Shown: positions 33,001 to 36,000 of the stretch, piece after piece
Numbering within the stretch: the stretch's first letter is position 1
How the letters are laid out: each line of letters opens with the position of its first letter
Assembly (NCBI GenBank): GCA_024276465.1
Contig: JAJRXD010000035.1
Coordinates: forward strand, 2,028-66,027
Source: Deltaproteobacteria bacterium
GTDB taxonomy: Bacteria; Desulfobacterota; WTBG01; CAIYCZ01; CAIRTM01
Direction of reading: 5' to 3'
Length of the DNA stretch: 64,000 nucleotides
Position numbers: made by a program

Positions 33001-36000
33001 TCCTGAATATATTTTCTTGGAGAAGTTTTGAGGATCCGGCCTTTTTCCCTGTAAATAAGCCCCTGTATCCTGCCAAGATCACTGCTGCCCCTGCTGAAGG
33101 AAAGCAGAATTTCCAGCAGCGTAATTTCCCCCTCGCCAATAACCCCGATATCAATATCTTCACACTCCTGCAGGGTTTCTTCCGGCAATGCAGTTATGTG
33201 ACACCCGCCAACTATTATTTTCATGCCTGGATCGGATTTTTTTATTTCTCTTGCAAGATCAAATGTATTGCATATTGCATTGGTCGTTGAGGAAATTCCT
33301 GCAATTCCGGGTTTCAGTCTGTTAATTTCCCTGACCGTAGCAGCAATATCCAGTCCCTGGGCAGGCGCATCAACTATTGTAACATTATAACCGTCTCTGC
33401 GCGCGCAGGCAGCAAGAATGCAAATCCCCATGGGCGGGGCTTCACTCCCCATCTTAGCAAAACTTCCGTAGCGTTCTTTTAAAGTTAATGGCGGGTTGAC
33501 AAGTACTAAATCAGTTTCAGGTTTCATATATTTTTACACGGGAATGAATGACATTGTTAAATTATAATTTTTCTTCACCTGTTAAACCCGGAATTTGCTT
33601 TCAGACATCTACTGCAGCATCTGGGTTAACAGCATCTCAGGGGATAAATACAGGGTGAGGATATCAGCCCGAAAACTTAGAGATGCTAAACTACGTCCTT
33701 AGCGCAAAGGAGCCCGTAAGTAGAGTAGGGACTGCCTTCATGAAGGGTAACATATTCAACCCTGAATCCTGTTTTCTCCAGGACACTTCTGAAATCCTCC
33801 CATTTTCGAAAATAAAACCGGTCACCCATATAAAGACAGTTGTCCACAATTCTGGTCAGAAAAAATTTATAATAGGGCTCAAAGCACACATCTTTAATAA
33901 ATAAAACGCCTCCCCTGTCCAGCCCTGAATAACAATACCTGAGCAAATCCTCCTGCTGCTCAAACGAGTTCATGTGATGAAGCACATCAATGATGGTTAT
34001 TGCCTGACAGGAATTCAGATCATAGTCTCTTACGTCCATTGTAATAAACTCAGTATTTTTCAATCCCCGAAATGCATATTTTGTTTTTCTTGGGTTTTTC
34101 TCCACACCAGTTATCATTCTATCCCTGGAGCGTATTGCAAGAAAATTTGCAAAAAGACCATAACCAGATCCTATATCAACAATTTTTCCTTTTTCAGGAA
34201 TACACTGCTCGATTAAATCAAACCGGTTAAACCATAACCGAATTCTGTTAAAGGCAGTTACGTAAAAGCCTTTCCATTGCCAGGGGTAAAGAGAGATAAT
34301 ATCACTCATTTCCCTTGCCATTTTAAAATAGTTTGGAAGCATAATGATCTAAAAGTAACAGACTGCAAAATATGAGATGATCACAGCTTGATTGTCAATT
34401 ATAATGTCAAAACCCAAATGGATTAACGTCAAAGTCCAAAATCCAAATGTCAAATGAAGTTCAAAAAAGAAAATGTCAAAAAAATCTGAATTAATTCCAT
34501 GATTTTATTTTTTGTCATTGCTTTTAACTTTGAGTTTTTTAATTTGACATTTCTCTTGTCCCTTTGTCCCTCTCTGTCCCTTTGTCCCTCTGTGCCTCTG
34601 TGCCTCTGTGCCTCTGTGCCTCTGTGCCTCTGTGCCTCTGTGCCTCTGTGCCTCTGTGCCTCTGTCCCTCTGTGCCTCTGTGCCTTTTACTTTCACCCTG
34701 CCCTTCCAATGGGCTTCAGCTTTTTTAAATTCACTTTGAGAAATATCTTCCTGTTGATCCTCTTCAGGCGCTTCTTTATAACCGCTTCCGGCACATGATT
34801 GTCCATCTTTGAAGCTGGTGTACCAGGCCTGTCAGAATACGCAAATGCCTGTACCACATTAAAACTCACCTCATCCAGCACCCTCATGCAGTCTTCAAAA
34901 TCTTCTTCAGTCTCTCCGGGAAACCCTACTATAAACTGGTTCCATATCTTAAGCGACGGCATCTCTGCCCTCAGATCATTTATGCATTTGATGTAGTCCT
35001 CCACCTTATAGGGTCTCCTCATCGCCTTCAATACCCGGTTGCTGCCTGACTGAATCGGCGAAAATATTACATCAATTTTTTCTGTGCTGAACACTTTTTT
35101 AAAATAATCAAAATATTTTATCAGCCAGTTGGGCTCAAGATGATATATGTTCAGCTTGTAGTCACCCTCTGTCTCTAAAATTTTACCTATAAGCGCAGGC
35201 AGGTCTGTTCCGATATCCTGTCCGTAAGCTCCCGTGTCATCTGCCGTGAGGATAAACCTCTTGTACCCTGCTTCAATTCCCTTCCTGAAATCCTCCACTA
35301 CCTCCTCTACCGGAACACTCGCAAGTCCTCCCTTGGCTCTCTTTATGGCGCAGTAAGCACAGTTGCCCAGGCAACCCTCCCCTAACACTAAAAAATATGA
35401 GTCCTGATCCCCTGTCAGTTCTCCAATCTCGAAATTCGGCAATATGTGTTTTCCATATCTGCCTGCCATGCTTTTCAGCTTCGAAACCTTGTGTACCAGC
35501 TTCCTGTGGGGCATCTGTGTAATATCTTCATCAGAAATCGTATGCTGGTCCTTCCACGCTATATCCTTGTCCGATCCAATTACCTCCTTAATTTTGTCCC
35601 TTTGCTTTGGGCCGAATGATATCCCGTCGAAAACACTTTTCATCCTGTCTTTGTTTATATTCGGCAGGCATCCTGTCACTACCAGCTGGGCATTTTTGTA
35701 CTTCTTCAGATCCTCTATGTCAGCTATTGAACTGTCTTCATGCTCCTTGTCATAGGCACAGGTGTTTGCTAATATGATATCAGCCTCTGCAGGGTCCTGA
35801 ACAACCTCCCACCCGTTCTCCTTAAAATAGTTTCTGAATGACTTTCCGTCCAGAAGGTTATCAATACATCCGTTGGACCTGACATACACTTTTTTCATAT
35901 CTGTTATCCCTTCAAAAACTATTTGTTGATAAAATCGAAAAAAGTTAAAATCCCATGGCAAAGTAAAAAGCTTCAAATTCAAGGCGCGCAAATCCTCCAG

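Follow-up and report, generated by a model that had tools for sequence, protein, structure and literature searches.

Octanucleotide array behind a radical-SAM gene of an uncultured deltaproteobacterium: a probable member of a gene-boundary repeat family found in many bacterial phyla

A stretch of 64,000 nucleotides from a Deltaproteobacteria bacterium (assembly GCA_024276465.1, contig JAJRXD010000035.1, positions 2,028 to 66,027; hereafter the window) contains a tandem array of an 8-nt unit between two minus-strand genes, one for a MiaB-like radical S-adenosylmethionine (SAM) protein and one for a methyltransferase. The original prediction, made on the sequence of the window, regarded this array as a candidate contingency locus in a glycan operon or as a protein- or RNA-binding repeat. 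The features of the locus are listed below in window coordinates.

34693..35898, minus strand: MiaB-like radical-SAM gene, Pfam domains UPF0004 and Radical_SAM, 401 aa from M52
34687..34695, minus strand: tandem in-frame stops TGA-AAG-TAA at the end of the radical-SAM open reading frame (ORF), TAA two codons after TGA
34559..34688, minus strand: array of 16 octamer units, read as CAGAGGCA along the gene strand and as TGCCTCTG along the plus strand, with the gene-strand variants CAGAGGGA, CAAAGGGA and AAAAGGCA
34593..34664, minus strand: perfect core of the array, nine consecutive TGCCTCTG (plus-strand reading, in-phase parse)
34559-66 and 34567-76: degenerate units, plus-strand reading, TCCCTTTG and TCCCTCT(CT)G, the latter with a 2-nt CT insertion
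From 34577 and from 34585: degenerate units, plus-strand reading, TCCCTTTG and TCCCTCTG
34665, 34673 and 34681-88: units past the perfect core, plus-strand reading, TCCCTCTG, TGCCTCTG and TGCCTTTT
34543..34550, plus strand: inverted copy of TTTGACAT, adjoining the degenerate end of the array
34343..34558, minus strand: A+T-rich spacer from the array to the methyltransferase start, with the degenerate heptamers ATTTGAC ATTTGGA TTTTGGA CTTTGAC and copies of TTTGACAT
34404..34480, minus strand: three direct copies of TTTGACAT (34404-11, 34447-54 and 34473-80)
34369..34398, minus strand: sigma-70-like promoter match TTGACA-18-CATATT (10/12, consensus match only) upstream of the methyltransferase gene
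33686..34342, minus strand: SAM-dependent class-I methyltransferase gene, 218 aa (database copy P0121 from M8, 211 aa)
34505..34696, minus strand: 63-aa ORF reading the array as (GTEAQRHR)n, judged an artefact
34499..34798, plus strand: 99-aa ORF reading the array as (CLCASVPL)n, judged an artefact

The array is recovered both by Tandem Repeats Finder (period 8, 14.2 copies, 95% matches, score 200, 34572-34685, with an extra row of 18-nt period for the degenerate left end) and by our own in-phase parse of the plus strand. The earlier reading of a tandem octamer is therefore correct, although the parse gives 16 units over 130 nt (34559-34688) instead of 16.5 copies at 34553-34684; the nine perfect consecutive units described before are found as such. 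The array starts 4 nt past the TGA (34695-34693) of the minus-strand radical-SAM ORF, and the second stop, TAA, overlaps its first degenerate unit. Pfam calls on both sides agree with the earlier placement directly behind the stop of a MiaB-like gene with a methyltransferase gene next. Between the parsed array and the methyltransferase ATG at 34342 lie 216 nt; the 210 nt given before are right when counted from the left edge then used.

The plus strand of the array consists of 39% C, 21% G and 40% T and contains no A, and every unit retains the signature CTYTG. The two-unit pattern CTYTG-N3-CTYTG occurs 13 times in the window, always within the array, against 0.47 +/- 0.72 times in the shuffled window, which excludes a chance origin. 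CRISPR arrays have repeats of 23-47 nt with unique spacers between them; here the 8-nt units are contiguous and without spacers, and this candidate was rejected.

Arrays of this octamer lack a stop codon in all six frames, so that ORFs running over the array are by-products; the original prediction had already called the (GTEAQRHR)n frame an artefact, and rightly so. The GTG start of the 63-aa ORF overlaps the radical-SAM TGA as GTGA (34693-34696) with GGAAGG 5 nt upstream, a coupling-like signal that is probably fortuitous. ORFs crossing the array are unfit for annotation. In the spacer on the other side, four of the six TTTGACAT sites of the window fall within 34404-34550. These copies contain perfect TTGACA hexamers and are interspersed with the degenerate heptamers; they may represent a decayed heptamer repeat, -35-like elements or sites for a regulator.

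We scanned one genome per GTDB species for exact (TGCCTCTG)x3. The scan gave at least 120 stretches, on which all family counts are based, and 121 loci were analysed (the listed stretches and the window copy), with genes called heuristically from long ORFs and, for G+C-rich loci, a filter on G+C at third codon positions. Among the matches listed, the triple unit occurs at no fewer than 120 loci in 96 genomes from approximately 20 phyla. Carriers belong to the Gemmatimonadota, Planctomycetota, Verrucomicrobiota, Lentisphaerota, Acidobacteriota, Nitrospirota, Desulfobacterota, Myxococcota and Bdellovibrionota, and to the Bacteroidota, Spirochaetota, Actinomycetota, Chloroflexota, Bacillota, Armatimonadota, Elusimicrobiota, Cloacimonadota, NPL-UPA2 and several classes of Pseudomonadota. 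Complete and isolate genomes are among them (Sorangium So ce388, Thiobacillus denitrificans RG, Pararobbsia silviterrae, Magnetospirillum moscoviense, Ramlibacter, Streptomyces and Nocardia). The repeat alone is what these loci have in common with the window; their flanks are unrelated to it. Among the matches listed, 18 genomes carry 2-4 loci each, and 31 same-genome pairs of loci are observed where 0.04 would be expected under random scatter. Viral contigs contain 4 loci of the target octamer against 0, 1 and 1 for three composition-matched shuffled octamers, a weak control given the small counts.

The family does not correspond to anything we could find by name. Rfam 15 gave no match in the window at gathering thresholds and none in 34200-34800 at E<=1, and 18 family (hairpin) loci returned a tRNA only. 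Literature searches with 12-16-mers of the repeat led only to unrelated, primer-like eukaryotic sequences, and we came upon no account of this unit, its breadth or its purine-arm-first hairpins. Metagenome contigs contained no match to the junction pattern of the window locus, nor to the flank of a family locus from Lake Mendota Sulfuritalea.

The repeat occurs in two forms: one-armed tandem arrays, to which the window copy belongs, and inverted pairs that give long hairpins (for example CCACAGAGGCACAGAG - loop - CTCTGTGCCTCTGTGG). About half of the listed loci have an inverted partner arm, and the median free energy of the hairpins is -57 kcal/mol. Their order is far from random: 52 read with the purine arm first, against 6 that begin with the pyrimidine arm (binomial p = 3e-10). 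Copy numbers range from 3 to 26, and the window array with its 14-16 units is among the five longest. The array of Pararobbsia silviterrae DHC34 has 12 perfect units, or 14 when near-perfect units are counted. Substitutions in the 186 variant units that are in phase with perfect ones are distributed unevenly over the unit (T1 57, G2 59, C3 62, C4 4, T5 5, C6 41, T7 8 and G8 19). Changes are rare at C4, T5, T7 and G8, which defines the family signature as CTYTG plus three variable bases. Arrays of other 7-8-nt units (AAATTGG, GGTGAATSG and GGAACTTT) are frequent neighbours at the same loci.

Most of the analysed loci are intergenic (102 of 121, window included). Where a gene could be called on both sides of an intergenic locus (72 loci), the genes are convergent in 25 cases, co-directional in 37 and divergent in 10. 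Hairpins read the same on both strands, so the polarity of the repeat can be determined from one-armed arrays only. For these, the distance from a gene 3' end to the array has a median of 36 nt when the purine strand follows (14 of 26 within 40 nt, many within 10 nt) and 108 nt when the pyrimidine strand follows (2 of 21 within 40 nt; Fisher p = 0.0018). The rule is that the purine strand, CAGAGGCA, stands in the mRNA just behind the stop codon, and the window copy, with its purine strand 4 nt past TGA, conforms to it. Other simple sequence repeat (SSR) units at the same loci show a non-significant trend in this direction, their purine-rich strand being on the coding strand after stops in 15 cases against 7 within 160 nt.

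A separate observation concerns arrays upstream of genes with the pyrimidine strand (TGCCTCTG) on the coding strand, for example at the loci L005, L029, L067, L037, L038, L064, L110 and L112. Six of the ten one-armed arrays of this type end 51-74 nt before the predicted start. Arrays may thus have another favoured site in 5' leaders, where their CCUC could pair with the Shine-Dalgarno sequence.

The slippage-type instability proposed earlier is plausible, since related arrays vary between two Nitrospirota species (loci L036 and L042) that are ~90% identical across 5.6 kb aligned. Behind one orthologous stop, where L036 has nothing, L042 carries an insertion of ~230 nt made up of (GGTGAATSG)n and (CCACAGAGGCA)n, in duplicate. 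At a second such stop, the CAAAGGCA(CAGAGGCA)4 of L036 corresponds to a small hairpin and (TTCCAAT)3 in L042. Presence, length and unit thus differ at the same post-stop sites, which shows that the repeats turn over fast; behind both genes compared, the changes have no evident switch role. The two species also carry several other repeat families at gene ends (AAATTGG, AAAATTG and GGTGAATSG), and at one site a heptamer array takes the place of an octamer array. The sites noted are as follows.

L036, 4743-4793 and 1693-1732: repeat sites
L042, 2160-2400, 3819-3845, 4992-5013 and 7872-7892: repeat sites

These families differ in presence and copy number between L036 and L042.

Taking these results together, the window array is very likely a long one-armed member of a gene-boundary repeat family whose unit is CTYTG plus three variable bases. 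As a locus it is ordinary for its family, and the interest lies in the family.

Repeats of this kind have been known for some time: intergenic 7-8-nt repeats of bacteria have appeared piecemeal in the literature for 30 years, and no function has been assigned to the heptamers of cyanobacteria, to GGGAATC, to TAACTGA or to the Geobacter sites. The heptamers GGGAATC and GGGGA(C/T)T of Xanthomonas and Nostoc have their G-rich strand on the coding strand 0-50 nt past the stop; the study that described them found no function and considered phase variation improbable (Rehm et al. 2015, PMC4692102). Our octamer resembles them as a 7-8-nt tandem repeat that is intergenic, lies near or over the upstream stop and has its G/purine-rich strand on the coding strand. 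The resemblance extends to scarcity between divergent genes, to the occurrence of inverted pairs, to variation between close relatives and to the lack of a link with any gene class. Unlike GGGAATC, however, the octamer has no G-runs and cannot form a G-quadruplex, shows no preference for four units (3 to 26 here) and is present in ~20 phyla rather than two lineages.

The paired tandem octa- and heptanucleotide sites of Geobacter metallireducens, classes 1-3 (Aklujkar et al. 2009, PMC2700814), are similar in architecture, with three to five tandem units of 7-9 nt, mostly in opposite-strand pairs at variable distance and dozens per genome. Their class-2 consensus TCTCCGTS[Y], judged as printed only, resembles the CTCCGTGC/CACGGAGG variant of many hairpin arms. 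The Geobacter sites come from one genome and were read as DNA sites of a global regulator; the window copy, in contrast, is unpaired and far longer. TAACTGA direct repeats, present in 2 to 43 copies, occur in Beggiatoaceae, cyanobacteria and Bacteroidetes, and ribosomal protein S1, Csp and CsrA have been proposed as binders (MacGregor 2015, PMC4679880). Like these and the cyanobacterial heptamers, the octamer is a short intergenic unit common to distant phyla with no evident mechanism of transfer, but TAACTGA lies just upstream of start codons whereas the octamer family is found mainly just downstream of stops.

The hairpin members share with the repetitive extragenic palindromes (REP) and the related BIME and REPIN elements a palindromic form in multiple copies and a place at the 3' ends of genes, which are often convergent; they differ in that their stems consist of tandem octamers common to many phyla. 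By eye, and uncounted, no consistent U-tract is present in the printed hairpin flanks. The window copy is not palindromic and has no second arm, and a REP/REPIN element was rejected for it (no search aimed at RAYT was made). Also rejected were attC sites, DNA-uptake sequences, KOPS/Chi and sigma-54 promoters, whose defining motifs or spacings do not fit.

Three properties of gene-boundary SSRs are seen here. There are 16 head-to-tail units, nine of them perfect, where three or more of 7-8 nt are characteristic; the array follows a stop (4 nt after TGA) with its purine strand coding; and close relatives vary, both between L036 and L042 and at the window locus, where relatives are without the array. 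A fourth property, several loci of one unit per genome, is seen in 18 other genomes; the 64-kb window has one copy. The array belongs to a known kind, intergenic 7-8-nt SSRs with unexplained positional rules and cross-phylum sharing, of which the particular unit is new. What the octamer adds is a unit spread over ~20 phyla, a conserved 5-nt core at an 8-nt period, a strict stop-codon polarity and fast turnover between related species. These constraints are concrete and testable, and cultured carriers are available in Thiobacillus denitrificans, Sorangium, Pararobbsia and Magnetospirillum.

The original prediction held that a change in copy number would alter spacing or transcript structure, and this does not agree with the layout of the locus: the sole sigma-70-like site of the gap is ~160 nt downstream of the array, and the array RNA does not fold. 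On either strand, 156 nt are predicted to fold with about -12 kcal/mol to a centroid that is essentially unpaired, and compared with its shuffles the whole intergenic region shows no better folding (z = -0.4). An intrinsic terminator consists of a G+C-rich stem-loop followed by a U-tract. No terminator-like site is present in 34343-34692 and the unstructured array has no inverted partner, so this candidate was rejected as well. The SSRs of contingency loci are made of 1-7-nt units and are placed within an ORF or between promoter elements, so that a single unit changes expression. The window array shares with phase-variable SSRs of the Haemophilus/Neisseria type a long perfect, slippage-prone tract near surface-glycan genes; unlike them it follows tandem stops, outside any ORF and not between -35 and -10. 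Because frame, promoter spacing and structure are all unavailable, no known route of SSR switching exists at this locus. Genes beside family arrays in other genomes show no evident common theme, whereas the window region is glycan-related; a family that stands behind every kind of gene in ~20 phyla speaks against a contingency role specific to one locus. The array is thus probably no on/off switch for its neighbours. Phase variation, in which gain or loss of a unit would switch the methyltransferase gene or the glycan cluster by shifting spacing or transcript structure, could draw on the slippage of long perfect tracts, on the variation of family arrays across related species and on the glycan context noted earlier, which is indeed present (GT2, NAD-epimerase/dehydratase, PMT_2/ArnT-like and NeuB genes nearby). 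Nonetheless we consider it very unlikely: to position and lack of structure are added orthologous loci without an array, and the analogous GGGAATC family was judged an unlikely mediator of phase variation (PMC4692102). This removes a tempting reading, since the repeat offers no evident means of toggling the glycan genes.

The best overall explanation, with about as much speaking for it as against it, is that the array is a member of a polar gene-boundary SSR family which is no switch and possibly has a role at transcript boundaries. It was probably made and resized by replication slippage, with quick turnover. In the radical-SAM mRNA it would form a tail or an intercistronic spacer, untranslated and unstructured, while the methyltransferase gene may use its own promoter ~160 nt further on, as suggested by a consensus match only. 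With such a spacer and a separate promoter, a change in copy number would switch neither gene.

If the family is functional, its role would be a polar one at the transcript boundary. The termination factor Rho loads on C-rich, G-poor, unstructured RNA; its utilization (rut) tracts are C-rich, G-poor and unstructured over about 70-80 nt or more, and its main genome-wide task is the suppression of antisense transcription. The sense RNA of the array is purine-rich with more G than C, has no U and is unstructured, which would make it inert to Rho. The antisense RNA is likewise unstructured, with 39% C, 21% G, 40% U, no A and 40 YC dinucleotides in 130 nt. By its composition this plus-strand RNA would resemble a rut tract, being richer in C than in G (1.9:1), A-free and ~130 nt long with regular YC dinucleotides, though the likeness exists in the antisense direction only and G is rather high. 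An opposing RNA polymerase would write such rut-like antisense RNA and could be terminated before it enters the gene; in hairpin copies both strands would form a bidirectional stem-loop barrier. We put forward this Rho/antisense mechanism tentatively, as a possibility. That two unrelated units, CAGAGGCA and GGGAATC, have this polarity in common points to strand composition, and not to a single motif, as the property behind it. A wider proposal is that CTYTG-N3 arrays and purine-arm-first hairpins form a pan-bacterial polar signal that marks the 3' edges of transcription units, is read by a universally conserved machine acting on single-stranded nucleic acid (Rho, cold-shock-domain proteins or RNA polymerase) and blocks or tunes transcription from the opposite side. 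On that view the window copy would be exceptionally long, and distant phyla would share the unit through convergence on what the conserved factor prefers to bind, not through horizontal transfer. We offer this as speculation and think it unlikely. If polarity does reflect a conserved boundary mechanism, it bears on how bacteria contain antisense and read-through transcription.

Several points weigh against a functional gene-boundary family as proposed here. The enrichment over other octamers is based on the listing of at least 120 loci and on the small viral counts, and the gene calls at family loci come from our own heuristic. Elsewhere in the 64-kb window there is no CTYTG-N3-CTYTG, so that a single copy is visible for this genome. 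Hairpins are no more stable in the sense than in the antisense direction (12 vs 11), and their G.U (vs A.C) pairs show no asymmetry either (101 vs 94, sense vs antisense); nothing therefore indicates selection on one transcript. The Rho idea draws on composition alone, G at 21-25% is high for a rut site, and the model explains neither the onset of arrays within 10 nt of the stop nor the conserved CTYTG core. A related idea uses the consensus elemental pause, G-10 Y-1 G+1 (PMC9291695, PMC6336406), which falls once per unit on the pyrimidine strand. It was down-weighted as the would-be +1 G (G2) is among the most variable positions of the unit (59 substitutions).

A serious rival is mutational origin. 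Short purine-rich seeds behind stops would expand by slippage into a functionless by-product, and polarity would reflect origin, not role; by one possible route, ribosome release would expose purine-rich nascent RNA, which would form stable R-loops with the pyrimidine template and so lead to slippage. Fast gain, loss and unit replacement at the same sites speak for this account, and it accommodates the many other 7-8-nt units in the same genomes together with their purine-rich trend after stops, the adherence of GGGAATC to the same rule (PMC4692102), the lack of strand asymmetry in hairpin quality and the lack of an evident common function among flanking genes. It leaves unexplained, however, why the CTYTG core recurs in ~20 phyla with several loci per genome, and why half of the copies form long well-paired hairpins. 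On balance we find an origin without function rather unlikely, yet to be taken seriously. The array might also bind a sequence-specific factor, either a DNA-binding global regulator or nucleoid protein, or a single-strand binder such as a cold-shock protein, which would line the pyrimidine strand head to tail, with one G-Y-Y-T-Y-T-G in each unit, and tune termination or the formation of hairpins. A 5-nt core with a strict 8-nt period and a variable 3-nt linker has the look of a footprint, and CACGGAGG variants are common in purine arms. The Geobacter class-2 sites, three tandem TCTCCGTS[Y] on opposite strands, were proposed to be sites of a global regulator, possibly IHF/HU (PMC2700814). The single-stranded DNA consensus of Bacillus subtilis CspB, GTCTTTG/T (PMC1904285), differs from GCCTCTG by pyrimidine-for-pyrimidine changes only; this apparent resemblance was noticed post hoc and is a lead. 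In duplex DNA the 8-bp period would set successive sites on different faces, and overall we see a binding array as distinctly unlikely.

Two other accounts concern the reality or the reading of the array. It could be translated, either from a small ORF with coupling to the radical-SAM gene or by read-through as a tail, giving a hydrophilic (GTEAQRHR)n with the same repeat in three frames. The GTGA start/stop overlap with its GGAAGG would suit coupling, and the purine strand encodes a benign hydrophilic repeat while the other strand encodes a Cys-rich hydrophobic one, which could bias polarity. But two in-frame stops (TGA, and TAA two codons on) precede the array, a start codon is no feature of the family, half of the family are hairpins and, as given above, most analysed loci (102/121) are intergenic; translation is most improbable. 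Equally hard to credit is an assembly artefact, even though the source is an uncultured Desulfobacterota-like metagenome-assembled genome (MAG) and several family arrays lie at contig ends of other MAGs. Unique sequence flanks the 130-nt array within a long contig, and family members are likewise seen in long-read chromosomes and in complete genomes of isolates. Mis-assembly could still affect the copy number alone.

The neighbouring genes give some information about the history of the locus. The true start of the radical-SAM gene is M52 at 35898, as ~45 homologs have 401-406 aa with 61-83% identity; the listed ORF, which has a GTG start and extends to 36051, is 51 codons too long and crosses a repeat element there. 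In every fetched context of the radical-SAM homologs (loci L121-L134) a conserved gene for ~147 aa follows ~18 nt downstream. Its product matches no Pfam family, has a Cys motif of the CEDCVCGKK type at its end and probably serves this subfamily of radical-SAM proteins as a functional partner or as a substrate. Examples are given here.

L121, 5230-5673: ~147-aa partner gene
L123, 5228-5689: ~147-aa partner gene
L130, 5237-5671: ~147-aa partner gene
L131, 5237-5680: ~147-aa partner gene

The partner gene is not found in the window (tblastn, whole window). No octamer array is present at the loci L121-L134, nor upstream of two methyltransferase homologs (L141 and L142; 75% and 58% identity), which have other upstream neighbours than the window gene. 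With the partner gene missing and relatives without an array, the array sits at a break of synteny and is lineage-specific at this locus.

The wider region encodes many B12-binding radical-SAM proteins, methyltransferases, a thiamine-pyrophosphate (TPP) enzyme and a HAD hydrolase, beside the glycan-type genes named above. The nearest named relatives of its RibBA are 'Desulfob...' and 'Deltapro...' MAGs with 78-83% identity. One B12-binding radical-SAM gene is split (24326-25645): the B12 domain lies in ORF 24917-25645 together with the first part of the radical-SAM domain, whose remainder is in ORF 24326-24910, the result of a frameshift, a pseudogene or a sequencing error.

Other repeats and mobile-type elements were seen in passing. 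At L134, a 324-aa Y1_Tnp (IS200-like) protein with a weak DnaA_C match (2173-3147) lies directly past the partner gene. At L141, several C6-8...G6-8 hairpins of the CCCCCCTTTGGAAAAGGGGGG type (4480-4800) form another multi-copy palindrome family within a 1.4-kb non-coding stretch upstream of the methyltransferase homolog. In the window, two direct copies of a repeat, no shorter than 76 nt and 91% identical (35927-36002 and 36992-37067, 1065 bp apart), flank an opposite-strand ORF with a weak ATC_hydrolase match (36478-36918, plus strand), and one of the two copies generates the false 51-codon N-terminal extension of the radical-SAM ORF. Finally, an element beginning with TGGCTTCGTAAAAA starts right behind the stops of two minus-strand genes (32085-33527 and 37148-37672). 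It spans 31826-32084 and 37130-37147, has an inverted partner, GGACTTTTTACGA, in the first of these gaps and looks like a second element behind stop codons, of the type of miniature inverted-repeat transposable elements (MITE) or REP.

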